From contig JBHGNT010000003.1 in assembly GCA_043228905.1 (NCBI GenBank), forward strand, positions 13,888,001-13,952,000: 64,000 nucleotides of DNA. The letters are read 5' to 3'. Numbering within the stretch: position 1 is the first letter of the stretch; each line of letters starts with the position of its first letter. Shown one piece after another: positions 6,301 to 63,500 of this stretch. The notes beneath the pieces were generated by a model that had not been told where the DNA came from, searched no databases, and saw nothing but the letters and a program-made list of their open reading frames with translations. The position numbers were made by a program, and so were the translations under genes. This DNA comes from Azolla caroliniana (taxonomy: Eukaryota; Plantae; Polypodiophyta).

Positions 6301-6369
6301 TTTAGGAAACTTGATTCGAGGATTAAGATCATCAAAAAGTTGTTTAGCACACTTAGATAGTTTCTTTGT

Positions 6370-6712
6370 TTGTGGAACTACAATACCCGTTACAGCAGTG
6401 AACCTGATGTTGAGGCTCACACACGATCTTTTCTTAATGTCTGGAATGCGAACCATGTGTCACAGCGGCTCCCGGAGGCCAACGTCAATGCCTCTAAGAT
6501 TGTGGAGTTTGGGCATACTCTCGACGGACAAGCAACGTGGTGGCATTCACAGCTCGATCTCTCGACTTTCACGACTTTCGACCAGCTCCGCACGACGTTC
6601 CTTCGACTGTTTCACCGGAGTGTTCCACAACGCGAAATGATTGGTCAATTCTACTCTAGCCAGTTGTTCAATCAGGAATCTATCACCGATTTCGTCATCC
6701 GGTTCCAGAACT
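6370..6712 (+). pseudogene. Gypsy gag fragment (left half of the target into which element A inserted)
   Basis: YSSEPDVEAHTRSFLNVWNANH...SKIVEFGHTLDG...FVIRFQN is homologous to the gag ORFs at 59339-59680 and 62881-63228. It continues at 31226. Confidence 0.8.
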
Positions 6713-6713
6713 T

Positions 6714-6732
6714 TAAACCCTAAACCCTAAAC
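6714..6732 (+). repeat. Short interstitial plant telomere repeat (TAAACCC)2-TAAAC
   Basis: taaaccctaaaccctaaac at the junction of the gag fragment and a truncated LTR. Confidence 0.8.
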
Positions 6733-7093
6733 TTAGACTGAACTATTAATGAAACCCTAATCGGTTACTAATCGACAAGATCATTAGTCACAATACACGT
6801 GTAAGATGAATTACACTTAGCATAGAACGGTAATTAACACTGATTAAGATACAGAACAACAACACTCTATTAATTATCCGCTATTTCATTATAAATAGAC
6901 CCGGTCCTTTTATAGGTCACCGGCTCTAGGTACAAACCAGTGCCAACCGGCAACCGGCGACGAACCGGTCCAGATCCGGATCGTCATACCGATTCCGGGT
7001 CCATCCGTTCGCTTCTCAAAATAATAATTATAGATTAATTATCCCTTTCCCATTCTGGACTTTATCCGGCTTTCAAGTCTTTGCCGGCCAACA
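6728..7093 (-). repeat. 3' LTR of Gypsy A (outer end truncated)
   Basis: Aligns with 30860-31225. Begins TGTTGGCCGG on the - strand. TATA-like CTATAAAAGG on the - strand. Confidence 0.88.
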
Positions 7094-7095
7094 CA

Positions 7096-7112
7096 TGGCA
7101 CGCTTGTGGGAC
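7096..7112 (+). other. Inverted PBS-like (tRNA-Arg) sequence at the position of the PPT
   Basis: tggcacgcttgtgggac lies 2 nt from the LTR end. It resembles the PBS TGGCACGCCCGGT of elements B and C. Confidence 0.6.
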
Positions 7113-7146
7113 AGTACCTTGTACGTCGAATCCCAAGGTTCGCCCT

Positions 7147-10100
7147 TCACTCTTCCTCCAAAATGTCCAGAATGCTCTTGTCCAAGGGTTCTAAAGGCTC
7201 ATTGGGTAGCCGCTCCGACGTCTGTTGCTGCTCCTGCTCCCGCTCCTACTGTTGCTGCTTTTGCTCCTGCTCCTCTGGTCTCTCCGGTTCCACTTGTTTC
7301 TCTGGTTCCACTGGTCTCTCCGGTTCCGCTAGTGTCTCCGGTTCCACCAGTGTCTCCGGTTCCACCAGTCCCGAGGCTTCCGATTCTAGTTCTATTGGTT
7401 TGGGCTCCTCCTGTTGATGGTTTCCTATGTGTAGGTTTCCATTTTTCGGCTGCTCCTCCGGAGTTATGTTCGGTTGGCTTCCCCGAACTTCGGCTTCATT
7501 TGGCGCCTGCTCCGAAGACTGCTCCTCATCACTTATATTGATCGCCGCAATTCTTCTGACCACTTCTTTCCGTCGCCGTTCTCGTTCATACCGCTCGAGC
7601 TGGAGTTGGGTATCCAACTGGTCGTCGTCCAATTGTTCAACCAATCGCCTCACTGCCGCCAATTGGTCCCCGGCTAATGATAGGAAGTCGTCCGACAATT
7701 CCTCCCTTATGGCTACAATGTTTTCTTCGTCCAGTTTATAGAAATCGTCGTCCTCCTTCTACCGGTTCTCCGCATCCGCTTGCAACAATTGTAACTCCGC
7801 TGCCTGCTTAGCCCATTGAGACCACCATTGAGCCGAACTTTCTTCCACCAGTCGCTTCGTCCGGTCTCTCCATGTTTGCACCAGATCACGTATTCGCCCT
7901 AGCCCCATCTTTGATTTGATCTCTGCGACTTGTTTTTCATCCTTCAATTGTTTGATCAGGCTCGCGGTTGCCACTTCTTGGCTTCTGTAGTGCATGAGAT
8001 GGGTCTGATAGGTCGTGTGAACTTTGTTCAGAGCCATTGTAGTGCGCTCTGTTGCCTCTGAGTGCTACCGGGTCTGCTCTACCCATTCTTTCACCGCTTT
8101 CGTAGTTGCTTCGCTGCTTCAACCCCCTTTGACTCTTCTTCTACCAAGGCTACCACGATCCGGTTAACCTCATCCCGAAGTTCCCGTAACTTCTCCTGCT
8201 TCCGGTCACTTTCAGTGATCAATTTCTTGTGTTCTGCATCCAAGTGTTTGTGATCCCGGTGTAGCCGATCAAAGTTCTCCATTTTCTATTTCAGTCGTTG
8301 GTTGATCAGACGGTGAGCACGTTCTTCCTGGTCCTTTTGTTGCCAGAGTTCTTCCTTGAGTCGCTCGATCTCTACTTCCGCCGAGCGCCGAAGTTTGTCC
8401 TTTTCCTGTAGGAGTCTTTCTTTTTCTTCCTTCAGCCAGTCATATGCTTGATGACCTTTTCTCAAGCTTTCCTCTGCTTGGCGGAGGCTGTGGGCCATCT
8501 TCCTTTGTTCCTCCTCCGCCGCTTTTTTCAATTCTCGCTCCCTAGCTCGTAAGGCTTCTTGTGCTGCCAAGTCTTCCAGTAATGTGGCGAGCTCTTGTGC
8601 TGGCGTTTTATTAGTATCCGGGCTTGATTTAGTCACCGGGGTCTTATTGTTCTGTAAAGATACCGGAGCCACCGGTTCCGATTGCTATGGTCCTTCTATG
8701 ACGAACTTGGCAATTTCTGTTCTGGCCTTCTCTATGTCTTGCTCCATGCTCCGGATTTTTGACCGGGCCGTCTCTAATTCCTCGGTTGTGGCTAGCAACA
8801 AGTCTTCATGCGCTCTCTCTTCCGCTTCTAACTGGCAGACGACCCCGACCACTTGTTTTGCTATCCATCGTAGCCATTGACTGCCGGTGCCTTGTTGTCG
8901 TGCCGGTTCTGGTCGTGGGATGGTTTCTTCACTGGCCATGAGCCTATTATGGATGGTTACGTCAAGCGGCCACTTCGGTTCTGGCTGTTGCTGCTGCAGA
9001 GGCGACACCGACAATTCAATGTCCGATTCTTGATCCATCGGTATTGCCGTGTCCTGGACCGCTGATTTTGCTATGTCCTACCGCACCAATTGCTCTATCA
9101 CCGATTCTTGTTGAACCAGTTTTGACGTCTTCCTTGGTTGCGACTCCTTAGGGAGGGGTTCCAGTATAATGTCCTCCATCAGACTTGATTTGTACCCTTT
9201 GTGGTCCTTGTCACTTGTCTGTCGACGATGTATCAAAGTCTCGGTAGGCTCGTCTTCCTGCTCTTCTTCCTCCAGGGTCTTGCTATTGATTAACGCCGCC
9301 AAGGGGTCCTGCCCCTGTGGTTTGTCCGGTTGCTGTTCTGCTTGTTGTTCCGTCTGGCGCAACTTGATTTTCACAGGTCTCACCAGGGTGTCCACCAATG
9401 CCTCCTTTGCAGACCGCTTCCGGTTAGGCCACTTCTTCGCCTTTTGTGAAGTGTCGGCCTCCTTCCAGCCTATTGCCTGGGTAGCTAGGAGTTGCTGCCG
9501 TTTTGAAGCTGTTTTGGGGGTCGATTCTATCCGTCTTCCTCGCTTCCTTTGTTTCATGGGCTCCACCGGCGGTGCTAACAGAGTGAGCCATTGTGCCACC
9601 GTTGTCCACATCTTTTTGCCATCTTTTACTAAGATGATGGTAGTGCTCAGGCCGTCGACGATGATTACCGGCCAATCCACCTGTACTCCCTTGTAGGTGG
9701 CTATGATCAAACCGTCTCTATTCCTGGGCATAACCGGTGGTCGGGGGTATACATGACCATACTCGTGGAGTACCCGAGCAATTTCTTGAAACAATAGGTC
9801 TTCACGTGCGGTACGCCTTGCTGCCTAAGGAGTATTCTCTGAAATACTTCGTCAGTAGCTCTTGTGAAGGGTTGTCGATTGAGTATATTCCCCCTTCTGG
9901 TAAGCTGGTCAGGGCTCGAATGGCTTCTTCGGTGATGACCTCTGTGTCGATGTCTTTGACGACATTTTCCACATCTCCGTGCGGCGGTGCTTCAACTATC
10001 CTCAAGAATCCCTCCAGGTCGTGTTGCTTAAGCCATTTCTTGGCCGCTTTTGAGAGTACCATGCATTCCATGTTGTCGTTGGAGTCGGTAGGTTGTGGTA

Positions 10101-10224
10101 GGATTAGTGCACCTGTGTGTTCTGCTTGCTGTCGCCTGATCACTCGTAATCGCCTGTGTGCGTTGAGAACTCTGTGTTCGCGAAATGAAAGGGACTCTGT
10201 GCGGTGGAGGTTTTCTTTCTCCAT
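7147..10224 (-). pseudogene. Extra ORF of Gypsy A (~1000 codons: conserved N-terminal domain, basic region, long coiled coil, PE-rich repeats), disrupted
   Basis: ORF pieces 10224-9802, 9794-9078, 9038-8685, 8672-8286, 8282-8091, 8037-7759 and 7698-7246 are joined mostly by in-frame TAGs plus two frameshifts. The frame stays open to TGA at 7147. The N-terminus is homologous to 53393-54088. Confidence 0.75.
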
Positions 10225-13024
10225 GCGTGGCGTCTTTTCTCAATTCCCACGCATGCACGTCTTGTACTATAATAGCAGTCGGTTGACACCTGGTGGGCTT
10301 TTAAAGAGGCTTTAATTAGCCACCTACCACACCTTTTCAAAGTGCCTGTTCGCTCCTCGCCTATGCATGATGACTTTTTTTTTTTGCAAGTTGAGTTTTA
10401 GTTAACTGGAAGCATTGGTCCGTATCCCGGTTTTTTCCCATATTCACGTTTGCTGGCCACCTCTTTGTCGCTATTCGGTAACGCCGGCTCCGCTTGATTG
10501 TCGGGTACTTGTTTACCGCTTCCTAATGTTGCATCATCCTCCGTCTGCTCGAACGGATTCTGTGGCATGGGTCCACAATTGATACCAGATTGAAAGGAAT
10601 ACGGTTTCCTAAGCTATGCTCGGCCACAACCGAGACGTCGGATCAAGCACAAAAAAATAGGGATGTGGTGAGATGTATTAATGCACGGAACAGTAAAGAA
10701 GAGAGTGCACTGGATGTTAACGTGGAAACCCAAATTTGGGAAAAAACCACGACAACTCTTAGACTGCAAAATATCACTATATCAAGATTACAACAATGGG
10801 GCACAGAGGCAACGACCTCTTCCTCTCTCTCTCTCTCTTCTCTGTACGCAGTTACACTCTAAATTATCGCAACAACGATAATAATACAACCAGCTCTACA
10901 TCATCATCATTAAGTTTTCCCTAGGTCATATTTATACTAATATGACTTTCGGCTATTTACAAAATATAGCCCCAGTGGGCTCTCTGGAACATATTTACAT
11001 ATATGTCCCTTCATCCGATGAGAGGTTCTCACCGGGCCTGCAACATCCGGTTCTCACCGGGTCTTCCTTGTCGGGTACTTGTCATTCGGTTCTCATCGGG
11101 TCTTCCGTTGCCGGGTACTTGTCATCCGGTTCTCACCGGGTCTTCCGTTGTCGGGTACTTGTCATCCCATCCGGAGGGACCGAGATCCTAACAAACTCCC
11201 CCTTCACTCCGGCATGGGATGCCAAGTCAATCCGATCCGCTTCCGACATGCATCCAGCTTGTCGGGTATCAATACTTTGGTCAGCATATCTAACCCGTTC
11301 TCGGCCGTGTGGATCTTCGTCAGCGCAAACTCTCGATCTTCTACTCGCTCCCGGATCCAGTGATACCTACACTAGATGTGCTTCGTCCTGGAATAGTACG
11401 CTGTGTTCTTAGCAAGGTGGATGTCACTTTGATTGTCGCAATAGAGCTGATATTCATCTTGCTGGATACCGAGCTCTCCGATGAAGTCCTTCATCCATAG
11501 TATTTCCTTGCCGGCTTCCATAACCGCCATGTAATCCGCCTCCGTGGTTGACAACGCAACCGTCTTCTTCAGCCTCGACTGCCATGAAACAGCTCCCCCT
11601 GCATATGTCATTACATACCTGGATGTAGACCGCCTAGTATCCACATCAGCCGACATGTCCGAATCGGTAAAACCGTCAAGTTGAGGTTTACCGGAGCTGA
11701 ATCAGAGACACATACTTGAGATGCCTTTCAAGTATCGGAGTATCCATTTTACTGCATTCCAATGCTCCTTGCCGGGATTGCTAATAAACCGGCTCACCAC
11801 TCCGACTGCATATCCGATATCCAGTCGGGTACACACCATTGCATACATTAGGCTCCCGACGGCAGACACATATGGTATCTTCATCATATCCGCCTTCTCT
11901 GCCTTCTTCTTCGGGCTTTGCTTACCGAATAACTTGCAATTTTCCGGAAGTGTTTATCCGACCGGTTTTGCATCTAACATGTTGAACCGTTGAAGCACCT
12001 TTGTCACGTATTTTGCATGTGACAACCACAATTGCTTCTTTGACCAGTCCCGGATGATGTGCATCCCAGTATCTGCATAGCCGGGCCCAAGTCTTTCATT
12101 GAGAAGGTTTGGTTGAGAGCCTTCTTCACCATCCGTATTTTGGCTTGGTCCCGTCCAACGATCAACATGTTGTCCACGTACAGAAGGAGTATCAGGAAGT
12201 CGCCTCCTACAAACTTCTTCACAAACACGCAATGATCGGTTTGCGTTTTGTGATACCCTTGGTCGGTCATGAAGGAGTCAAACTTCCGGTACCATTGTCA
12301 GGGAGCCTGCTTCAATTGGTACAGGCTCTTCTTCAACCAGCAAACCAGGTGCTCCTTCCCTTTCTCCACGAATCCTTCCAGTTGCTGCATGTAGATCTCT
12401 TCTTCGAGGTCACCGTGAAGGAATGCCGTCTTCACGTCCACCTACTCTACCTCGAGGTCCATGCTTGCCGCTATGCTCAGCACCGTTCAGATGGAAGTCA
12501 TCTGTACTACCGGGGCAAATATCTCGTCGAAGTCCACACCCTTCTTCTGCTAGAACCCCTTCACCACGATCTTGGCTTTGTATCTCGGGGGTTTGCCGGC
12601 ATCTCCCGGTTTCAACTTGTACACCCACTTATTTCGGAGTGCCCGCTTTTCTTTCGGCAACTCCACCAATTCATACGTATGGTTCTCATGCAGGGAATCC
12701 ATCTCATCCTGCATGGCACTTAACCATTTGCGGTTGTGGGTGTCATCCTTCGCTTCTTCGAAGCTTTCCGGCTCTCCCTCATCGGTCAGCAACACATGCT
12801 CTACATCCGAAAATCTTCGGGGGGCCCTTCTCTCTCTGAGAGGATATCTCTGTCTTTGGCCTTCGGCAACCAACTCCACTATTTGTTCTTCATCTGAATC
12901 CGATTCGGGGTCTTGGCCGGTTCCGATTCCAGCTTCCTCTACTTCTTCTTCTACCGGTTCGGTATCCTCACCGTAACTGGTTGGTTCCTCGATTGTCAAC
13001 CGGCTCTTAGCCGGGTGGGTCAAT

Positions 13025-20543: not shown

Positions 20544-22470
20544 CCTTCGTCGCTGCTCCAGTTCCAACTACATGAGATTCGCTATCCGATGCTCTTCTTG
20601 TTCGCATAATGCGGCTAACCGGATTTTTTCCGATTCCTTTTCACTTACTCGTTCTCTAACCTGTATCCGCAAACTCAGAACCTGAAATTCGATCGGCATT
20701 ACTACTTCCAGCCCAAATGCTAACCGGAATGGTGTTGACCGGATACTCGTTTTGTATGTCGTCTGGTATGCCCATAGTGCACTATGCAGCTTCGTGTCCC
20801 AATCGATCTAATTTTCATTGACGATCTTTCGCTGGATGTTCTGGAGCGTTTTGTTTGTGGATTCTACCAGTCCATTGGCCTGTGGATAATAAGGGGTACT
20901 GCGCTTGTGTACCACTGCATAGAATGTTGTTAAGCTCTCCACTACTTGACTGAGAAAATGTCCGCCTTGGTCACTAATTAACTCGATCGGGCATCCATAC
21001 CGGCACGAGATGTACTCATATAAGAACTTTGTCGTTGATGCCGCAATGTTGTCCCGCAAAGCCTTGACTTCTACCCACTTGGTACAATAATTTGTGGCGA
21101 CTATAACATATCTGTTGCCGGTTCTCATTGCCGGAGGTTTAAATGGCCCAACAAAATCCAACCCCCATTCCTGAAATGGCTCTAAGGATAGCACCGGTTG
21201 GTGAGGCATCTTGCCTGTTCTGTTGTTTGGCCGATCCGTTGACATAAATCACAGTCTTTTGCGTACCGGACCAGGTCCTTCAATGTCGTCGTCCACCATA
21301 GCCCGTCGTGCCATATCTTTCTTGCCGTAGCATCCCCGACATAGTGCCCTCGTAATATTGTGTCCTTTTCGTCGCTTCGCACTGCTCACCGCCATATGCC
21401 GTCCGCACCTTTGTGGTACAGGGTATCCTGTAGTAGACAAAAATGTCGGATTTGTACCGCTAACCGCTTCCGCTCATCCCGGTTCATCTCCTCCGGTGGT
21501 AGTCCCGTGCTTAGGAATTGATGCATGTTGGTTAGCCACTTGTCTTCGTCGACTACCGTGCTATTTGTTGCCGTTTTTGCTGTTACTTTAAACAACTCAG
21601 CATCCGGAAACTCATCTGGGACTCCATCGACGGTCTCGCCGGGTCAGATAATCAGCAACCGCATGTTGTATTCTCGACCAATGATGTATTTCGAACTCAA
21701 ACTCTTGTAGCAACAATGTCCATTGGGCCAGCTTACCGGTGAGCGATGCCTTTGAGAACAAATATAATAGCGCTGAGTGGTCGACATGAAATGAAAATTT
21801 CCTTCCCAATAATAGTGCTTGAACTTGGTAACATTGTAAATCATCCCTAAGGCTTCTCTTTCCGTTGTTGAATAATTTCGTTCCGCCTAGGATAGCTTCC
21901 GACTGGCATAATAAACCGGTCGGTACCATTTCGGTTCAGTCAGTTGCATTAGTGCGCTGCCGATTGCTATGTTGAACGCATCGACGAACACGTGGAACTC
22001 TTTTGACCAGTTCAGTGGTTGCACCACCGCTGCTTGTGATAGCAGTACTTTTAGTGCCCAGTAAGCCTTATCCTCCGTATTTGTCCATTGAAACAGTGTC
22101 CGGTGAACTGCGGCATGCAACGGTGTAGCAAGATTGGCCAAATACCAGAGCATCCGGCTATGCCACCGGATTTGCCCTAGAAACCGACTCAAAGCTTTGG
22201 CGGTGGATGGTGCCAGTGCTTCTAAGATTGCTTTGACCTTATCGGGATCTACTGCGATCCCATCCTTGCTAAAGATATGGCCCAACAATGCACCGCTTGT
22301 TACTCCGAACACACACTTTGCTGGATTCAGACTTAACCTATAACTCCTGCATTTCTCAAGACATAGTCGGAGGTGTTGGAGATGTTCTCTTTCTCGGCTA
22401 TACACAACAATGTTATCCAGGAATACCTGCATAAATGCCGGGATGAACTCACCAAATATTTCCATGATTA
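20544..22470 (-). pseudogene. Gypsy A pol: RT end, RNase H, integrase (disrupted)
   Basis: [48 protein letters not shown], with frameshifts and stops. Confidence 0.88.
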
Positions 22471-25400
22471 TGACGAGAAATATGCAGAATAATCTCCGGC
22501 CACAACTGAAGCGTAGATCACTTGATGACAATCAAACACAGAAGAAATGGGAATGAAGGTAAGTACACAAAACAAAAAGAGAGTACATAGGATATTAACA
22601 TGGAAAACCCTAAGAGGGAAAAACCACAGGAGTCCACAGACTCCAAACTATCACTATGTCAAGTAATACAACAAGGAGCACAGAGGCAACGACCTCTTGC
22701 TAACAATCTTCGCCTAGTGACAGTTACAACAGAGACACAATCTTTGTATTTCGCTCTCTCTCTCTCTGTCTTACACATTGTACAGGAGTTACACCAATAA
22801 CTCTATCATCCCCTACATTGAGTTTGCCCTAGGTCATATTTATACTAATATGACTTTAGGGCTATTTACAAATATAGCCCCAATGGGCTCTTTGGAACAT
22901 ATTTACATATATGTCCCTTCATCCGGTGAGAGTTTCTCACCGGGCCTGCAACATCCCGTTCTCTGTGGGTCTTCCTTGCCTGGTCTGCGTCATCTGGTTC
23001 TCACCGGGTCTTCCTTGCCGAGTACTTGTCATCCGGTTCTCACCGGGTCTTCCGATGTTGGGCCTTCGTATCCCATCCGGAGGGACCGAGATCCTAACAA
23101 ACTCCCCCTTCACTCCGGCATGGGATGCCGCGTCAATCTGATCCACTTCCGGCATGCATCTAGCTTGTGGATGTCAACACCTTGGTCAGCATATCCGACC
23201 CGTTCTCCTCCGTGTGGATCTTTGTCAACACGAACTCTCGGTCTTCTACTCCCTCCCGAACCCAGTGGTACCTCCGTTGGATGTGCTTCGTCCTGGAATG
23301 ATACGCTACGTTCTTCGCAAGGTGGATGGCACTTTGACTGTCGCAATAGAGCCGTTATTCCTCTTGCCGGATCCCTAGCTCTTCGATGAAGTCGTTCATC
23401 CATAGCATTTCCTTGCCGGCTTCCACAGGTGCCATGTACTCCGCTTCTGTGGTTGACAACGCAACCGTCTTCTGCAGCCTCAATTGCCACGAAACAACTC
23501 ACCCCCCATATGTCATGACATATCCGGATGTTGACCGGCTGGTATCCGCATCAGCCGACATATCCAAATCAGTGAAACTATCAAGTTGAGCTTTACCGGA
23601 GCCATATCGGAGACACATACTTGAGGTGCCTTTCAAGTATCAGAGTATCCATTTTACCGCATTCCAGTGCTACTTGCTGGGATTGCTCATAAACCGGCTC
23701 ACCACTCCGACTGCATATCCGATATCCGGTTGGGTACACACCATTGCGTACATTAGGCTCCCGTCGGTAGAGGCATATGGTATCTTCATCATATGCGCCT
23801 TCTCTGCCTTCATCTTCGGGCTTTGCTTACCGGATAACTTGCAGTTTGCCGGAAGTGTTGATCTGACCGGTGTCGCATTTGACACGTTGAACCGTTGAAG
23901 CACCTTTGTCACGTACTTCTCTTGTGACAGCCACAATTGCTTGGTTGGCCGGTCCCGGATGATATGCATCCCCATCATCTGTCTTGCCGGACCCAAGTCT
24001 TTTATTGAGAAGGTCCGGTTCAGGGCTTTCTTCAGCATTCGTATCTTGACTTGGTCTCGTCCGACGATCAATATGTCATCCACGTACAAGAGGAGTATCA
24101 GGAAGTCTCCACCTTTGAACTTCTTCACAAATACTCAGTGATCGGCTTGCGTCTTGTTGTACCCTTGATCGGTCATGAAGGAGTTGAACTTCCGGTACCA
24201 TTGCCGGGGAGCCTGCTTCAACCCGTAGAGGCTCTTTTTTAACCAGCAAACCAAGTGCTCCTTCCCTTTCTTCACAAATCCCTCCGGTTGCTCCATGTAG
24301 ATCTCCTCTTCGAGGTCGCCGTGGAGGAACGCCGTCTTCACGTATAACTGTTCTACCTCGAGGTCCATGCTTGTCGCTATGCTCATCACCGCCTGGATGG
24401 AAGTCATCTTTACTACCGGGGCAAATATCTCGTCGAAGTCCACGCCCTTCTTCTGCTGGAACCCCTTCACCACGATCCTGGCTTTGTACCTTAGAGGGTT
24501 GCCGGCATCTCCTAGTTTCAACTTGTACACCCACTTGTTTCGGAGTGCCCTCTTTCCTTTCGGCAACTCCACCAACTCATATGTGTGGTTCTCATGCAGG
24601 GCATCCATCTTGTCCTACATGGCACTCAACCACTTGCGGCTATCGGTGTCATCCTTCGCTTCTTCGAACCTTTCTGACTCTCCCTCATTGTCTGCAACAC
24701 ATGCTCTGCATCCGGAAATCTCTAGGGGGGCCCTTCTCTCTTTGAGAGGATATCTCCATCTAGGCCTTTCGGCAATCGACTCCTCTATTTGTTCTTCATT
24801 CGAATCCGATTCGGGGTCTTGGCCAGTTCCGATTTCAGCTTCCTCTACTTCTTCTTCTGCCGGTTCGGTATCCTCACCGTAACCGGTTGGTTCCTCAAGT
24901 GTCAACCGGCTCTTAGCCGGGTTGGTCCGAATCTCATCGGAGTTCATTATCCTCTTCTCCAACTCCTAGTCGGCAAAGGTCTTGTCCTCCATGAAGATAA
25001 TATCTCGGCTCCGGAAAACCTTCTTGTCAACCAGATCCTTGAGATGATGCCCAACATATAAGATTCGTGATACACCATCCAAATTTATTAGGTGTTTGGA
25101 TATCTACATATAGGTGCAAATCCAACCAATCTCACAATCTCTTGATCCAAAATGCCAATATCATAATTACTCGATTCCAAAATGCTAATCTCACAATTTC
25201 TTGATCCAAAATGCCAATCTCACAAATTCTCCATCCCAAATGCCAAGCTCACAATATGTGGATACAAAATGGAAACCTTAAAAAGCACAAGCATTAGAAC
25301 AATCCTTGTCTTGAGTGACGGGTTAAAATAAATATGTCCATATAATTTTTTTCCACCAAATTTCTAGGCAAGAGAGAACAATCCAATGTTGTTATAAAAA

Positions 25401-28205: not shown

Positions 28206-28621
28206 AATTATTCGTTGGAAGGTCACCGGTGCGGTCTTGAGTCCGAACATCATTAGCACTGCGACGAAAACTCCCCATTCGGTGATGAACGTCATCTTGT
28301 CTTGGTTGTCGGGGTGCATCCTTATTTGATTGTAGCCACTGAACCCGTCTAGGAAGCTATACACTTCATGATCGGCTACCGCGTCCAACACTCCATCCAT
28401 AAATGGAAGTGGAAAGGCGTCAGTCACTGTTGCCGCATTGAGTTTCCGGTAGTTGATGCACACCCGGATCTTACCGTTCTTTTTCTGCACGACGACTATG
28501 GGACTTAACCATGTAGCTTTTTTCATTGGTCGGATAAAACCGACCTATAGCAACTGGTCAATTTCCTGTTTGACCTTTGCCGCATGGTTAGGGTTCATCC
28601 GGTAACGCCGTTGTGCTACGA

Positions 28622-28721
28622 NNNNNNNNNNNNNNNNNNNNNNNNNNNNNNNNNNNNNNNNNNNNNNNNNNNNNNNNNNNNNNNNNNNNNNNNNNNNNNN
28701 NNNNNNNNNNNNNNNNNNNNN
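28622..28721. other. Assembly gap (100 N)
   Basis: Run of n. Confidence 0.99.
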
Positions 28722-28859
28722 ATTAAAAACGACGCTCATCAAACAAAACAGGCGGAAAAAACATGATTACCTTCCGGCGAGGAAAGGCTAAAGTAAGGGT
28801 ACCTACCCACCCTCAATCGAATACCGGCAAGGAGCTGACTCCTGTGAAGAAGCCACATT

Positions 28860-30420
28860 CCATTCATTTGCTTTCGGATTGCCTCCTGTGTTTCCCACTC
28901 CGTTGTTTGGCCTTTTGACATGGTGGTGACTTGTTGTATGTCAGCGACTTTTGCTACCACCATATTTATTGTTGGTCGTTTCTCGTAACTTTTAACCAGA
29001 CATTGATTACTGTAATGTCCTTCTTGCTGGCAATAGTAGCAGTACGCTTTCCGGGTGTTGCTGGATTCGGCGTTCGCTCCGTTACCCGGTTGAGGTCCTA
29101 TTGGCGGTCGGTTAAGTGCTTGGCCTTGGTCCAGTTGGGTACTTGGTGTGCCCTTGTATGGCTGCCATTGGTGGTCCTCCTTTCTAGCGTTCCGTTTTTT
29201 GTTGAAGCATTTTTTGTTCCGGTAACCCTGTCGGGGCCGGTTTTCATAATTGCCTTGATCCTCCCTCCGTTGGTTGTAACCGGGGGAGTGATCCCGGTTG
29301 TATCGCTCATATCAATCACCGTTGTAATCCCGGTAGCTATCCTACTGGTCTCGGTCGTAAGCGTCTCTTCTGTCGCTGTACCGGACATCTTGCGCCGAAC
29401 GGTAACGTTCATCTCGCCGCCAACGTTCTTCTTCCTCCTCCCGGTTACTCCGGGGTTCGATTTGCCGGACCGGTGCCGCTTGCCGATTCAACAAGTTATA
29501 TTCACAACGATCCATTGTGTGCGTTCTAGAATGGCATAACATGCACTATGACCGCATGGTACATTCTATTGCAGAGTGCTTGGCATTGAGATAAGTCGTA
29601 CATTGTATGGCTTGCCGAAAACTTAGGTCTTCGTTCATCAGGAAGGCACGCTGGAGTGCCCCCATTGTTAGCCACGAGCTTGTTTCCTCCATCTCCCTGA
29701 CCCGGTCTATGACCTGGTCAATCGTGCTGGTGAGGAAATCAATGATTGTGCACACCATACGTAGGGGTTCTCGGAGTGCTGCGAGGAATATTGCTTTAGC
29801 CTCTGCTTCCGGTGGTGCCCGATTTAGCTGGTTGTGCATTCGTTGGAACCAGATTATGAATTGTTGAATGGTTTCCATAAGTTCCTACCGTATGGTGTAG
29901 AATAGGCCGACCATCTCCCGTTGATCCACGTCCTTGTTGAAGACTTGTAAAAATTTGTTTTTCAAATCTTCAAACGTAGTGATGGTGCCGGGCATGTGCA
30001 TCAAGCGCCATCACGCAGCTGGTTCTTCCAAAGTCATGCCGAATTCGGCAATCTTTGAGTGTTCTGCTTTGGCAGTGTTTAAGCGCTGTGACACATGGTT
30101 CGCTTCCCAGGTTTGTAGAAATGCATACACATGGGCTTCTGCATCTGGATCATCCTTGTACTTGGGATATTGGAATGGCATGTCGTCGTCCGGTGTCGAA
30201 ACACAGGTTGGTGGTGTTGGAGGTTTCCCCTCCTCTTCTGTCGGTGTCAGAGGTCTTTCCTCCTCTTCTTTCGGTCTTTCACATGGCGGTGTCAGAGGTT
30301 GTTCCGCCGCTTGCCGGTCTGGGGCTTCTAGTTCCGTTAATTCCGGTTTTGGTGTCCGTAAGGTGTCCGACTGCTCGTCCTCCGGTCCGTCTGGGGTGTC
30401 CTGGATGCTATGGTAATTCG
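28860..30420 (-). pseudogene. Gypsy A gag (disrupted)
   Basis: KYKDDPDAEAHVYAFLQTWEANH, AIFLAALREPL, CCHC-like knuckles and an RD-rich region. Homologous to the B and C gag. Confidence 0.8.
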
Positions 30421-30777
30421 AATGGGCATTGCATTTGTCCGAATCCGATTCGAAGGTTGAGAACGGTTCCGAATCGCCTTCCCCTGTCGCTAATGCCTAC
30501 AGAATGGATTCCGCGTCCCGCAGACTGCTCAAGCTGCTTCCTTCGTCCGGGTGGGAATTCTGCTGCACGCGGAGTGACTCCGCGGCCACTCACCAGATTA
30601 CTTTCGAAAATGATCGATCCACACGGATCTCTTCTGCCGCCTGATGGAAAGCCTCTCGCTTCCGCAATCATTCGGAAAGTCTTCTTGCTCGCTCTGTAAC
30701 TGGGTCGTTTGTTGGTCTAGTCATCCATTCCCACCGTTGTTCGTTGCGTTTGAGCAGGAATCGTGGTCGACAAAAAC

Positions 30778-31225
30778 TGTGTTATCCCTAGGGGCCGGAC
30801 AATGCCCTAACACAAAGTGTCCCCTTTAGACACTTCACCTAAGGGGTGTTGCGGTGAGATAAACTTAGAACGAACTATTAATGAGACCCTAATCGATTAC
30901 TAATCGCCAGGATCATTAATCACAATACACGTGTAAGATGAATTACACTTAGCACAGAACGGTAATTAACACTAATTAAGATATAGAACAAAAACACTCT
31001 ATTAATTATCCGCTATTTCATTACAAACAGACAGGGTCCTTTTATAGATCATCGGCTCTAGGTACAAACCGGTGCCAACCGCCAACCGGTGACGAATTGG
31101 TTCAGATCCGGATTGGCATACCGATTCCAGGTCCGTCCGTTCGCTTCTCAAAATAATAATTGTAGATTAATTATCCCTTTCCCATTCTAGACTTTATCCG
31201 GCTTTCAAGTCTTTGCCGGCCAACG
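30778..31225 (-). repeat. 5' LTR of Gypsy A, with a degenerate PBS at ~30762-30772
   Basis: Matches 6728-7093. On the - strand it ends ...ACACA, then GTTTT-TGTCGACCACG (cf. tRNA-Arg PBS TGGCGACCAC). Confidence 0.85.
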
Positions 31226-57000: not shown

Positions 57001-60000
57001 ACCGTGTTGAGGACACTATCCGTGAACGGGAGAGGAAACCCATCCGTGACTGTCGCGGCATTGACTTTGCGGTAATCAACGCAAACGCGGATTTTCCCGT
57101 TTTTCTTGGGGAAGACTACAATTGGGCTAACCATGTGGCTCTTTTTACTAGGCGTGTAAAACCTACTTGAAGGAGTTTGTCGATTTCCTCTTTGACCTTA
57201 GCCGCGTAGTTGGGGTTCATACGGTACCGTCGTTGTTGGACCAGCCGAGTGTCAGGCAGGAGGTGTACTTGGTGTTGGTAATATTGGGGATCCAATCCCT
57301 TCATATCAGTGTAAGACCATGCAAATACATCCTGATACTCTGTGAGCAGGCGTATCAGGGTTTAGCGTTCGTTGGCTGGTAAGTTGTTAGCGATTTGTAG
57401 AGTACGTGGGTTCTCGTCGGAGCCGAGGTTCAGTGATTCAAGCGTTGATGCTTTGACTCGCTGGGAGATGGCGAGTTCTCGTTCAAATCCGTCCCAAGCT
57501 TGTCGTAATTCTGCAATAGTTGTGGAATCAGCCTCGTCCTGGGAAAGTGAATCTGTCGTGACATCCTCGTCCGGTGGTGTGCTGAAACCCGAAATGGCGT
57601 TTATTTCGAAGAGGGGTATGATAGTGGGATGATCTTCCAGGAATTCATCCACCTCTTCGTCGGCTAGGCCGTTGAGCATGTGTACCCCTTCCGCATATAA
57701 GGGTGTGGTGTTGTGGGGTGTAGTTAGGCGTTCTTCTGTTATTACCCATACCTTGGTCTTTCCCCGACGGAAAGAGATCATATTCTGTTGCCAATTTTGT
57801 TGAATATTTGCTATGCGAAGCTAGGGTCGGCCAACCAGCATTGGGTAAGAGCCAGGAGCTTCGAGGCATAACACGATTGCCGAGATAGTGAACATGTGGG
57901 CGCCTAACGTGAAATCAAGGTAGCGGATTAACCCGATGGGGTGAACCGATCGCGTATCGACCATCCGAAGCCAAAATTGGCAAGGTTCCCATTGGTTCAA
58001 GCCGAGTGTGTGACATGTTGCCTCGCTGATGACATTCACGCCGGAGCCACCGTTGATTATGGATCCATGAAGGTCGCGTCCTTTAATCATGATTTTCACG
58101 GCTGGATTCTGGGAATCCATGATGGGTGGGCTCGTCCCTGGCTCTGGCAGGTTCATAGGGGTGGCGACCAATTTGTCGTTAGTCGTGAGTGTAGCCAAGG
58201 TATCCTGAAAGCGCGGCATGAGCGGTAAAAGCTTATGCAATGGCAGCGAGATCCTAGAACTGGTAAGGGCTTCCCATAGATGGTCATCTTCTTCCGCAGT
58301 GGATGGTCCTGCGAGCGGTGGGGTGTCGATGGTCACGTCATGCATCTCTGTGTGCATCCGTTCCACGTTGCTTTTATTGGTGGTCTCAATCCATTCCTTA
58401 GTTGCTTGTCGGACGTCATCTTGTTCTTGCCATTGGCTGGCTTGCTACGTGTAGTGACGTGTTGAACGTCGGCCATAATATGTATTCACGGCCGGGGCCT
58501 TGCCACGGTCCGTGGTTGGGCATTGGGTAGCGTAGTGGCCGGGTTGGTTACACTTAAAGAAGGTAACGGATGCCGAGTTGCTGGTGTCATTGTGCTTAGT
58601 GTGTGGGAAAGGTTGTGAGTGGTTCTCGGCCGCTTGTGTAGGCGTGTTGGCCCGTGCCGCGTTGTGCAGGACGTTTGGAGGAGGCTCCCGACGACGATTG
58701 TCGTTCTGCCATCGATTGTTCCGCGAACCTCTGTAAGAGTTTCTTCTATCGTTTCGTGAATACCGCTGATCGTACCGGTCATCCCAGTCATCATCGTACC
58801 GGTCATACTCATCGTTTGCTCTATGTTGGTCATTGCGGTCTTGGTCACGGCGGTTGTCCGATCTCTTGCGATTGTCGTGGCAGTAGCAGTCGTCGTCGCG
58901 GCGGTATGACTGACGTTCGTCCTGCTGTGAGTAAGTATTTCGAGGCTCGATCTGGCAAACCGGAGTCGTCGTTCTGCGGTTGAGCATGTTGTATTCGCAT
59001 TGTTCGACCGTGTGGGATCGGGACTGACAGATTGGACAATGTGGCCGGTGAGGGCACTCAAGAGCCAGATGGCTTGGGCCCGAACAAGCTGTGCGTTGGA
59101 GGGCTTGTTGGAACCAGTTGTCCTCCTGAGGAAGAGTTCTTTGCAAAGAGCCCATGGAGAAAGTCGTGGTATGTTGTGTCTGATCGATGGCAAGGACGTA
59201 TGCGATGACTTGCTCGATTGTCTGGTTCGAGAAATTGGTAAGTGCGAGAGTCGTCCGTAGAGGCTCCCATAGGCTGGAAAGGAAGGTATCCGGAATGTGA
59301 TGAGCGGAGACATCATCGGCCAGTTGTCGGTAGAGATCCTAAAACTGGATCGTGAATTGGGCAACCGTCTCGTGAGGTTCTTGGCTCGTGGAAAACAACT
59401 GCCAGAGCAGTTCGCGCTTCGGAACTTCACGGTGAAATAATTCTAGAAACTTTGTTTGGACGTCCTGGAACGTTGTGACCTCCCCCACGTCGAAGCGGGA
59501 ATACCATCGAACAGCTGGTCCATCGAGGGATAGAGAAAATTCTGCGATTTTGGAGGACTCGATTTCGGCAGCTGATACCCGCTGTGTCGAGTGGTTGGCC
59601 TGCCATCTGGAAACGAAAGCACGGGTGTGTGATGTCGAGGCCGTCTGTATATCGTGGGTAAGGGTAAGGCATGGTATCAAGATCCGGGTCTTCAGGTAAA
59701 GCTAGAAAAGGGTTAGGGTCAGGTTGGGTGACCTCTGGAGGGCTTGGCAGGGAGGTCGGTGCGGAATCAACTCGCGACTGGGTATCGGGTGGCGAGGATT
59801 GCAACCGGTGAGCTTCTGATAGTTCCTAGAAAGATTGGTCAGTGACCGCCGAGTCGGAAGTTCCTTCGACTAGTTCAGGGCATCGGGCAGGTGGCCGAGA
59901 CCGCGTCATGCGATTAGGCGCCGTAATGGCGACTGGGGTTTGCCTCCTACGTAGTTCGTCGTGACCTTACAACTGTAACCGGGCGTGCCAAATTGTGTTA

Positions 60001-60534: not shown

Positions 60535-63500
60535 CTAGGCTTCACCCCTCACCATTAATAGGTTGTCTTGTAAGTATTCCTCTTCCTCCTCCTCATCCAA
60601 TCCCTCCAACATGTGCACTACCTCCACATGGATTGGTAAACATTGACGAGGCATGTTAACTTTTTCTTGTGTCGACACCCAAAATTTGTTCTTGCCTTTC
60701 CGGAATGTCAGAGTGTTCTTATGCCAATTTTGTTTAACCTTGGCCGTTTTCAGCCAAGGTCGGCCCAATAATAAGGGATATGGACTGGTTGCATCTAGGT
60801 GAAGAACTACTGCTGAGATCTAGAATGTGTGGCCACCTATAACAATATCCAATTCACGAATTAGACCAAGTGGTCAAACCATGCTTGTTTCAACTATTCG
60901 TAACCAGAACAGGCATGCATCCCATTTGGTAATACTGAGCCAGTCACACGTAAGTTTATTAATTACATTGACCCTCGAACCACCGTCAACAATGCTTCCT
61001 GTAACATCTTGGCCCCGTATTGTCACCTTAATTAATGAACTGTACTCGTCCATCAGAATCACACCATTCACCGTATTACTCTAATTTACCGACATCTTTT
61101 TTAATGAAGATTCAACTTGGTATTAATGGAAAGATGCCAAACGGCTATAATGAATTCATACAATATATTACAACCCTCATATCCACATCAACCAACATAT
61201 CAAGTATCAAAAGCCCTCATGTAGAGTTGTTCCAAGATGGGGGATGGAAAAAGCCATCTTGGTAGAGCATATCTCTAGTTTATTCTCTCTCTAAAAGAGG
61301 TGAAGACCTCTGATTTTCTCCAAATTTCTCAAAACTGCTATTGTTTATGTATCACAACCTCAGGCTCACCAGTTATTGCTTCATATTGACCTCTTAAAGT
61401 ATGTAAGAGCATTAACCACATCTCTTTGACTAACTCAACCGCATTCTATTTAACTTTCTGAAATTACTTACACTTTTTCTACCCCATTGTTCGCAATAAT
61501 TACGGCGACCTTCTTATTGAAGCGAGGCACTAATTTTAATAATCCTATCAAAGTTAATAATACTTGACAATATGCCAAGACCTTCCATGTGTTCATGTCT
61601 GCAAGTATTAGAGTCAGCTCTGACTATTCGAAGAGTCAACTGTTCTCCTTGTCAGTTGATATAGCATTTTCATGCAGCATTCGGACCACATTGCTATTGT
61701 TAGCCTCCTCCACCCATTGTTTAGCCGCTTTCCTTACAGCCTCCTGAACTTACCACTCTGATTAATTCCCCTTAGAGCGAATGGTTACCTATTGTACTTC
61801 CGGCACGACCATATTTAGCGCTAGTGCATTGCCTTTATGTTTTGTTGGGCACTGATTAGCATAGTGGCCATATTTCCTGCAAATATAACAAGTCGGCACT
61901 GAGGAACCACTCGATTCTTCGTTTTCATATTGAGTTTGACGCTCATCTTGAGATTCAAAGTTATCTCTATCTTTAGAATCATGATGCAACTCTCAAGATC
62001 CTTTCGACTTCCTCTTATCATTGAATTGACGATTTCATTGTCGATTGACATCATTCTTCCTGTGATTATTGGACCTTCTATCGTCTTGATATCTACCACC
62101 CCTATAAGGTTGGTTATTATTGTTATCCCATCGGAGTGAGTAATCCCGATCATAATTGTTCCGACTATCATGGCAGTCATCTTCCCGATGACACTCATCA
62201 TATCAGTCATTACGCTGATAGTCGTCGCGTCGAGAATCATCCCTCTGATTATCATCCCCGCAGCCCTCATCTCTGCGGCGATCATCGTGCAGAGTATCAT
62301 TACCCTGGTCTTATCTATACCGATCATCATAACTTGGTCGATCTTCTTCTTGCGACCAATATGCTGACTAATTCCGATCCTCATGAAAATTCGTCTCAAG
62401 ATGAATCCGTCAAACTAGTGCGGTTGTTTTGTTGAGCAAATTATACTCACATTGCTCGACCGAATAAGCCTTGGAATGGTAGATCGTACAATGAGTGTGT
62501 AAACTGCATTTCATCGTCGAATGCTCTATGTTGAGACAAGTGGTACATTTCACCGCTTGTTGGAACCTCAACTCCTCTAATGTAGGTAAATTTTTGTGCA
62601 ATACTGACATGTTCATACTATTATTATTGTGAGTACGATCCATTGCCAAAGCTTTGTCCATCACTTGCTCCAGTGATTAATTTCGTAAATCGCGTAACAC
62701 GAGAGTTGTTTGGAAAGGCTCACATATTGCTTCCAAGAAGATATCCTTCAGTTCTCCTTCTGGAATTGGGCATGAAATTTGGAGTCGCAAATTTTTAAAC
62801 CTAATCACAAATTGCGACATCGTTTCATGAGGCTCCTTATATGCCACATAAAATTGGCTAATGAGATCCTTCTATGGGATTTACCGATGAAATAATTGTG
62901 TAAACTTTGTAGATAATTGTTCAAATGTGCCGAACGCCTTTGGCCTGTTCTGGGCATACCAATTCACCGACGGTCCGTCGAGCGATAATACGAACTCATC
63001 GATTTTAGATTTTTCTTCAGAAGTAGCCGACAGCCGTTGTGCCACATGGTTCACTTCCCATGTCGTCAGAAAATCACGCACATGTGCTTTCGCATCGGCT
63101 CCCTCCCGATACTTTGAATAATGGTATGGCATTGTCACCTCCTCCCAAATCTCAAAAGAATATGGTTGATCGGACTGCTCCTCGTCCGAGTGACTATCTT
63201 TTAGATCGGGAATTTCACTTCTCTCCATTTTAACTTCTTGTTGGATTTAGTTAAGAACTTCCGAACCCTCCGCAATCCCACCTTCTACACTTCGTGTTTC
63301 TGATCTCGTGTGTGGTCTTTTGCGGCTTACAGGTGTCTCCGGACTAGATGACATCCATTCCCCTGGATTGTTACCTATAGCAGATGTAACCGGGCGTGCC
63401 AAAATATTGTGTCGATCTGCCGACAACTGACTACTGTAACCGACTAGCACAATATGTCCAACGTTCTTTCTCGAACGTTCTATCAAGATAATTGTGGTAG

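Follow-up and report, generated by a model that had tools for sequence, protein, structure and literature searches.

A lineage of Ty3/gypsy retrotransposons in the fern Azolla caroliniana lacks a polypurine tract (PPT) and carries instead, just before its 3' LTR, a split and inverted site for tRNA-Arg(UCU), at which a second host tRNA probably primes the plus strand. Judging from sequence comparisons, we think it likely that the whole lineage has exchanged the PPT for a second primer-binding site (PBS), that both DNA strands are started by host tRNAs, and that the genome keeps fossils of primers that were not removed. The lineage was recognized in a window of 64,000 nucleotides (the whole stretch of DNA analysed; contig JBHGNT010000003.1, positions 13,888,001 to 13,952,000), a region of plant repeats in which copia and gypsy elements are nested.

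Element A and the tRNA motif before its 3' LTR

The gypsy element that we call A, and the PBSs of its relatives B and C, are laid out in the window as follows.

6728-7093, minus strand: 3' LTR, its far end missing from 6728 at a telomere-like junction
7094-7095, minus strand: 2-nt spacer between CCA and 3' LTR (TG in family A; GG, AG, or TATG elsewhere)
7096-7112, minus strand: copy of the tRNA-Arg(UCU) 3' end including CCA, 17 nt, with two decay changes here
7114-7124, no strand assigned: hairpin of 4 bp and a 3-nt loop, at the tRNA nt 59/58 boundary
7126-7135, minus strand: match to tRNA nt 49-58 (5' strand of the T stem and T loop), second half of the split site
7141-7161, minus strand: purine-rich stretch where the extra ORF ends, separated from the LTR by ~48 nt
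7522-10239, minus strand: 3' extra ORF, broken remains
20544-22486, minus strand: part of reverse transcriptase (RT), RNase H, and integrase region, broken, with nested copia insertions on both sides
28206-30181, minus strand: gag and first part of pol, broken
30760-30772, minus strand: 5' PBS of A, in this copy a 12/13 match to host tRNA-Arg(UCG)
30773-30779, minus strand: 7-nt spacer between 5' LTR and PBS
30780-31225, minus strand: 5' LTR, ~446 nt, boundary taken from related copies
59978-59990, minus strand: 5' PBS of relative C, 13-nt match to tRNA-Arg(UCU)
63389-63401, minus strand: 5' PBS of relative B, 13-nt match to tRNA-Arg(UCU)

The placement of A on the minus strand, already proposed in the preliminary description, agrees with its gag-pol pieces (30181-28206 and 22486-20544) and extra ORF (10239-7522). 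The opposite orientation, with a PBS at 7096 and a PPT near 30847, was rejected: the G-rich stretch lies inside the LTR, and the proteins are read from the other strand. The inner boundary of the 5' LTR (30780) was set by the flanks of 30 related loci, the pairwise LTR alignment having begun at 30860, and the two LTRs of this copy are 92% identical over 365 nt. The cut at 6728 was made by ~2.5 units of plant telomere-like repeat (6708-6727), which link the 3' LTR to a plus-strand gag fragment (6361-6723) and resemble a healed break. Beside the repeat block, a long open frame at 995-2770 has CLASP/HEAT-repeat matches and is a host gene exon.

On minus-strand DNA, 7096-7112 reads as a PBS. It had been described, relative to the 3' end of plant tRNA-Arg(UCU), as a 15/18 match with one gap and two C-to-T changes; the end assumed there is borne out by the host tRNA-Arg(TCT) genes (found by pattern search, with ARAGORN confirmation in 8 of the 10 loci scanned), the match is right, and other copies reveal the two changes as decay and the gap as a family feature. 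The intact family motif equals the last 18 nt of host tRNA-Arg(TCT) with CCA, minus one C, which is missing at the boundary between T stem and acceptor stem; the gapped form has no match among the host tRNA genes found. Within the window, the 17-nt family motif matches once at two or fewer mismatches, against no match in 100 shuffles. The genome also has a cluster of partly decayed tRNA-Arg(TCT) genes in tandem (L039-L042; G000:C4, 19.55-19.59 Mb).

The absence of a PPT from the 3' LTR in the window, also noted earlier, is confirmed: 8 of the last 15 bases before the LTR are purines, in contrast to a copia and a chromovirus element also present in the window, both of which have purine tracts adjoining their 3' LTRs. 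Among related copies, the most purine-rich 15-mer with its end no more than 5 nt from the LTR holds 8-9 purines in all 40 family A copies and all 30 copies with other spacers (both sets picked by the motif), and in all 10 family H copies (picked by the LTR). Farther upstream, 39-53 nt from the LTR, families A and H do have a purine-rich 15-mer (11-14 purines); in the C-type sample, the best 15-mers (10-13 purines) stand at 25 or at 82-85 nt, with no fixed place.

The preliminary description was limited to one old copy, a limitation that has gone. The LTR end joined to the motif by the TG spacer has 1,076 exact matches in the genome, and with other 2-nt spacers a further 208, the control pattern giving 0 in both searches. 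We examined family A in the first 40 copies listed, all from contig C1 and picked by the motif: element proteins lie on the strand on which the motif precedes the LTR in 38 of them, the other 2 being without such a match, and gag directly follows the motif in none of the 40. Young copies, such as L057 (100% identical LTRs, a 5-bp target site duplication [TSD], and open ORFs of 1744 and 964 aa), have no PPT at the motif position either, and the motif is neither unique nor foreign to the host tRNAs. The 5' PBS matches tRNA-Arg(UCG) in 18/18 A copies in which the inner end of the 5' LTR was within reach (out of 40), and the 3' motif stays Arg(UCU). The motif is independent of the 5' PBS, the two ends of family A corresponding to different tRNAs.

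Families C and H were sampled by LTR sequence alone, to avoid a choice based on the motif. The 20 family C loci comprise 9 with the motif before the LTR, 9 with a PBS after it, and 2 with neither; the 20 family H loci divide evenly, 10 with the motif before the LTR and 10 with a PBS after it, and no purine tract precedes the LTR in either sample. The motif is also present in family B (L120, the only locus with the 5' flank in view) and family D (L367 and L371). Full-length H and C elements have the order LTR, PBS, gag-pol, extra ORF, 3' LTR; across families, 13 nt of the 5' PBS match host tRNA-Arg(UCG) or tRNA-Arg(UCU), and elements of B, C, D, and H have 11 nt of complementarity between the motif and their own 5' PBS. 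The U5-end spacers of these elements range from 5 to 11 nt. A short family, E (L354:125-2900; ~2.5 kb), has both tRNA sites and no gag-pol match and is likely a nonautonomous partner of the lineage. In a metagenome scan, we found 119 motif stretches, judged from motif and LTR start only, nearly all from one assembly series and with many further LTR starts; two of the contexts look like chance. No relative was found in the viral contigs searched.

The split site and its hairpin

Conservation with other families stops sharply at the segment matching tRNA nt 49-58, beyond the hairpin. We collected 137 distinct variants of the site, 25 of them found in two or more loci; 6 of the 25 were dropped as one decay-like change away from a commoner variant, and the remaining 19 were aligned. 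The check on covariation came out in favor of the hairpin: pairing holds in 75 of 76 cells, and in three of the four pairs both sides have changed. The covariation score is 0.518, compared with 0.209 in shuffles, with the rows related and the structure read from the same rows, and is not to be taken as a probability.

In cofolding, for which RNA parameters were used in place of those of the hybrid, the 3' 28 nt of the tRNA pair on both flanks of the hairpin, with one bulged C. The hairpin stands at the tRNA nt 59/58 boundary, at the m1A58 modification known to stop RT. The "T-arm-like hairpin" of the preliminary description is better read as a split site for the 3' 28 nt of the tRNA, with the hairpin looped out; the T-arm reading is weakened because the T-loop letters differ between families and the fold, on either strand, is not unusually stable relative to shuffles. 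The direction of substitutions (6 tolerated in trans, 2 the reverse, 7 transversions) does not separate pairing in trans from pairing in cis. The same split pairing at the 5' PBS of A was also considered and is unsupported, cofolding giving 10-13 pairs in 18/18 leaders; extended pairing at the 5' PBS is seen by cofolding in some H, C, and D leaders.

Copies of tRNA at LTR ends and the proposed priming of the plus strand

CCA is absent from the host tRNA genes, and an exact tRNA end followed by CCA therefore marks a reverse-transcribed tRNA. This exact 18-mer has 55 matches in the genome, all of which (55/55) were inspected. Most join U5 ends, as a 5' primer predicts (12 placed on the U5 side by a reversed U3 start downstream and the others by likeness to LTR ends). 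The other 9 matches, from 6 loci, join the U3 end of an LTR via the spacer of its own family, and in 4 of the 6 loci, the tRNA copy lies outside a 5' LTR that is then followed by a PBS. These four loci are a full-length A element with LTRs 99.8% alike and 57 nt of tRNA plus TG outside the 5' LTR (L140/L387, whose neighbors L139 and L141 belong to the same duplicated locus); a second full-length A element with 18 nt of tRNA plus TG (L294/L355); a member of short family E with 56 nt of tRNA plus TATG (L142/L354); and a full-length H element (L290/L389) with two head-to-tail junctions, each of U5 spacer and tRNA 18 nt joined by AG to U3. The two remaining loci are an inner 3' position of a chimeric element, not outside a 5' LTR with a PBS (L145), and a U3-side junction not followed by a PBS (L279).

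All four junction loci contain the C that the element motifs lack. Within the same stretch of DNA as the junction, the element's own 3' motif has the gapped hairpin form (L387, L355, and L354), and the usual motif of family H differs from the L290 junction at three places. The 5' primer of families A and E is another tRNA, so the junction copy does not come from their own PBS. The long U3-side copies end at 56-57 nt, and among U5 read-through copies, 3 end at 56 nt and another at 54.

Other joins of tRNA and element sequence are recorded in the same genome. Read-throughs of the 5' primer tRNAs at U5 ends extend over 28-70 nt, several ending at 54-56 nt (L136, L151, L155-L157, L159, L278, L283, L288, L291, L295, L046, L047, and L051), and their stops are possibly a record of tRNA modification sites. 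Six chimeras (L143, L144, L149, L161, L284, and L289) combine the 3' hairpin, the exact tRNA 18-mer, and a U5 end, and fit a second-strand transfer that landed on the 3' motif, not on the PBS. At L296 (G000:C21), the exact tRNA-Arg(UCU) 18-mer stands between the family A U5 spacer and pol, which could be a wrong internal priming site or a microhomology join. A pair of family E LTRs (L376:1110-8716; 99.3% alike, 5-bp TSD) encloses an antisense piece of a family A element, whose 3' motif has the exact tRNA sequence and occupies the place of the PBS; the flanks look to us like halves of a tRNA gene, for which ARAGORN made no call.

On these observations, we propose the following route. A tRNA-Arg would prime the minus strand at the 5' PBS, a step that we infer from the PBS match and from the tRNA read-through copies at U5 ends. 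Once RT had copied U3 together with the motif and the RNA had been cleared by RNase H, the exposed minus-strand DNA would offer 11 + 6 nt complementary to tRNA nt 76-59, the hairpin, and a further segment, of up to 10 nt, with complementarity to nt 58-49; the complementarity to both tRNA segments is read directly from the sequences, and annealing is predicted. The CCA end of the tRNA, 2-4 nt from the LTR, would start plus-strand DNA, and in family A, two different host tRNAs would thus start the two strands. In retroviruses, RNase H removes the primer and integrase trims the DNA ends; in the same manner, RNase H would here remove the tRNA, and integrase would trim the short overhang. Where removal fails, the minus strand would run onto the tRNA still in place and end after 18 nt or near nt 20, and we presume that the tRNA copies observed outside 5' LTRs arose in this way. 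A tRNA paired to DNA should be a substrate of RNase H, and the primer may for this reason be a cleaved piece of tRNA.

The main alternative to this route is that a nascent minus strand switched template to a tRNA annealed at the motif and that the product later recombined with a 5' LTR. Such an origin could account for the junctions, which on the U3 side are rare accidents, but it needs the same annealing and still puts the tRNA 3' end at the plus-strand start, with routine priming not required.

Two mechanisms had been offered in the preliminary description, a second tRNA annealing to minus-strand DNA and a mimic encoded by the element; we favor the first because real tRNA sequence lies outside the 5' LTRs. 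A self-encoded primer, in which RNase H would spare the element's own tRNA-like RNA ending in CCA and this would prime in cis as a PPT does, is attractive in that the motif sits at the exact PPT position with a 2-nt spacer, that the sense RNA can form a T-arm-like stem, and that no trans-acting step is needed. It nevertheless appears unlikely, since the copies outside 5' LTRs have the sequence of the tRNA and not that of the element, the T-loop letters vary, and the folds do not stand out from shuffles (z -0.9 to +0.3). A search for short remnants of the element's own gapped motif outside a 5' LTR (LTRs of 420-450 nt, exact anchors, hence a lower bound) yielded none in two candidates; both are family A LTRs that lie between the motif and the U5 spacer, and both carry >250 nt of the internal 3' region. 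Likewise, when families A and H were searched for LTRs joined head to tail (exact anchors, again a lower bound), only the two L290 junctions were returned, and both of these matches, from one locus, hold the exact tRNA 18-mer.

We regard it as very unlikely that the motif has another job (as a tRNA dock for packaging, in pairing of RNA ends, or in strand transfer) and that the plus strand begins at another site. Such a site might be the purine-rich stretch of A and H (39-53 nt upstream); also in favor are the 11-nt complementarity of motif and 5' PBS in B, C, D, and H and the tolerance of 5-11 nt spacers at U5 ends. Against this, the 3' motif is unchanged in family A, where the 5' PBS belongs to a different tRNA; the position of the purine stretch is not constant in the C-type sample; on RNA, the motif is identical to the tRNA, which excludes docking of the tRNA there; and the junctions place CCA directly at the spacer. 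That the motif is a neutral relic, an old captured piece of tRNA without function beside a priming mechanism we do not see, is hardly credible: read-through capture of tRNA does occur in this genome, but the motif is kept across families whose LTRs and flanks do not align, with compensatory changes in the hairpin and a sharp boundary of conservation, and no other plus-strand signal adjoins the LTR.

Classification and comparison with known systems

The elements have the Ty3/gypsy organization, with the order gag-PR-RT-RH-INT, TG...CA LTRs with TSDs, and a PBS after the 5' LTR; unlike in canonical PPT-primed elements, no purine tract adjoins the 3' LTR. In L057, Pfam finds gag, zf-CCHC, RT, RH, and integrase in this order, and the protease region was placed by likeness among copies, without a Pfam call. 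Among the nine A copies with both flanks reachable, the TSD is an exact 5 bp in 6, has one mismatch in 2, and is unclear in 1. As in the OTA/Athila group, Pfam finds no chromodomain and one RNase H, and a sense ORF of 964 aa follows pol. This extra ORF (L057:657-3551) is coiled-coil-like, rich in Glu and Gln, and without a Pfam match, its N-terminal part being conserved in families C, D, and H (26-37% identity). The ORF-1 domain of Athila (PF03078) was absent from it, with no Pfam family at E ≤ 0.1, which is a weak test because most Athila elements lack the domain (it is present in 16% of them; PMC6317226). The additional archaeal RNase H typical of Tat/Ogre/Retand was not found by Pfam in the 1744-aa polyprotein, and the 2.9-kb extra ORF after pol departs from the short Phygy/Selgy elements, in which the polyprotein fills nearly the whole interior. 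In a quick RT-RH tree of 89 rows, in which one unrelated RT (M_L202) was kept, families A, C, and H share a clade with SH-aLRT support of 100; it lies among proteins labeled Riccia (a liverwort) and Adiantum (a fern) or unnamed and stands apart from the seed-plant matches. The lineage is a nonchromovirus member of Ty3/gypsy, by its traits putatively on the Athila side of OTA.

Priming of the plus strand by a PPT is, to our knowledge, taught as common to retroviruses and LTR retrotransposons. We found no description of a tRNA-primed plus strand in the literature searched, most subscription papers lying outside its scope, and the lineage likely represents a new, lineage-wide mode of plus-strand priming within Ty3/gypsy. 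If this is true, an active, high-copy lineage using a second tRNA would add a priming mode to those of RTs and make it possible to test directly how a plus-strand primer is selected or spared by RNase H. Both DNA strands would be tied to the host tRNA supply and to silencing by tRNA fragments, and annotation tools that seek a PPT or orient elements by their best PBS can miss or reverse such elements.

The yeast element Ty3 shares with the present lineage two LTRs, the order gag-PR-RT-RH-INT, a tRNA-primed minus strand, and a plus-strand start just upstream of U3, and differs in the PPT, in place of which we find an inverted tRNA site. Ty3 primes its plus strand from an element-encoded PPT, its bipartite PBS being used solely for the minus strand (PMC5371799). 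The bipartite PBS of Ty1 and Ty3 consists of two separated segments, to which the primer binds by its acceptor stem and T arm, and in Ty1 a small internal loop divides them (PMC5371799). The predicted split pairing to acceptor stem and T arm is the same here, whereas the PBS segments of Ty1 and Ty3 have their complementarity to the tRNA at the RNA level and function in minus-strand priming, and ours is complementary on minus-strand DNA only and is oriented toward the 3' LTR. On the sense strand, the motif has the sequence of the tRNA itself, which sets it apart from the 3' PBS segment of Ty3, and in family A, its tRNA (UCU) also differs from the 5' primer tRNA (UCG).

In the REXdb survey (Neumann et al. 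2019; PMC6317226, as excerpted), PBS and PPT are usual features, three kinds of minus-strand primer are distinguished, and the PBS was sought in the 50 bp after the 5' LTR. Our lineage resembles the Athila side of OTA as portrayed there in having no chromodomain, no second RNase H found, a sense 3' ORF, a 5-bp TSD, and a tRNA-Arg PBS; it differs in grouping with proteins labeled liverwort and fern and in its second PBS, which goes unmentioned in that part of the survey. Helenus and TRIMp3 (Kojima 2024; PMC10886601, in the portion available) are likewise LTR elements carrying tRNA-derived sequence, noncoding, with the tRNA-like part inside the LTRs as a promoter and with both PBS and PPT present, whereas here the tRNA part lies outside the LTR, in place of the PPT, and the elements are autonomous, with full gag-pol.
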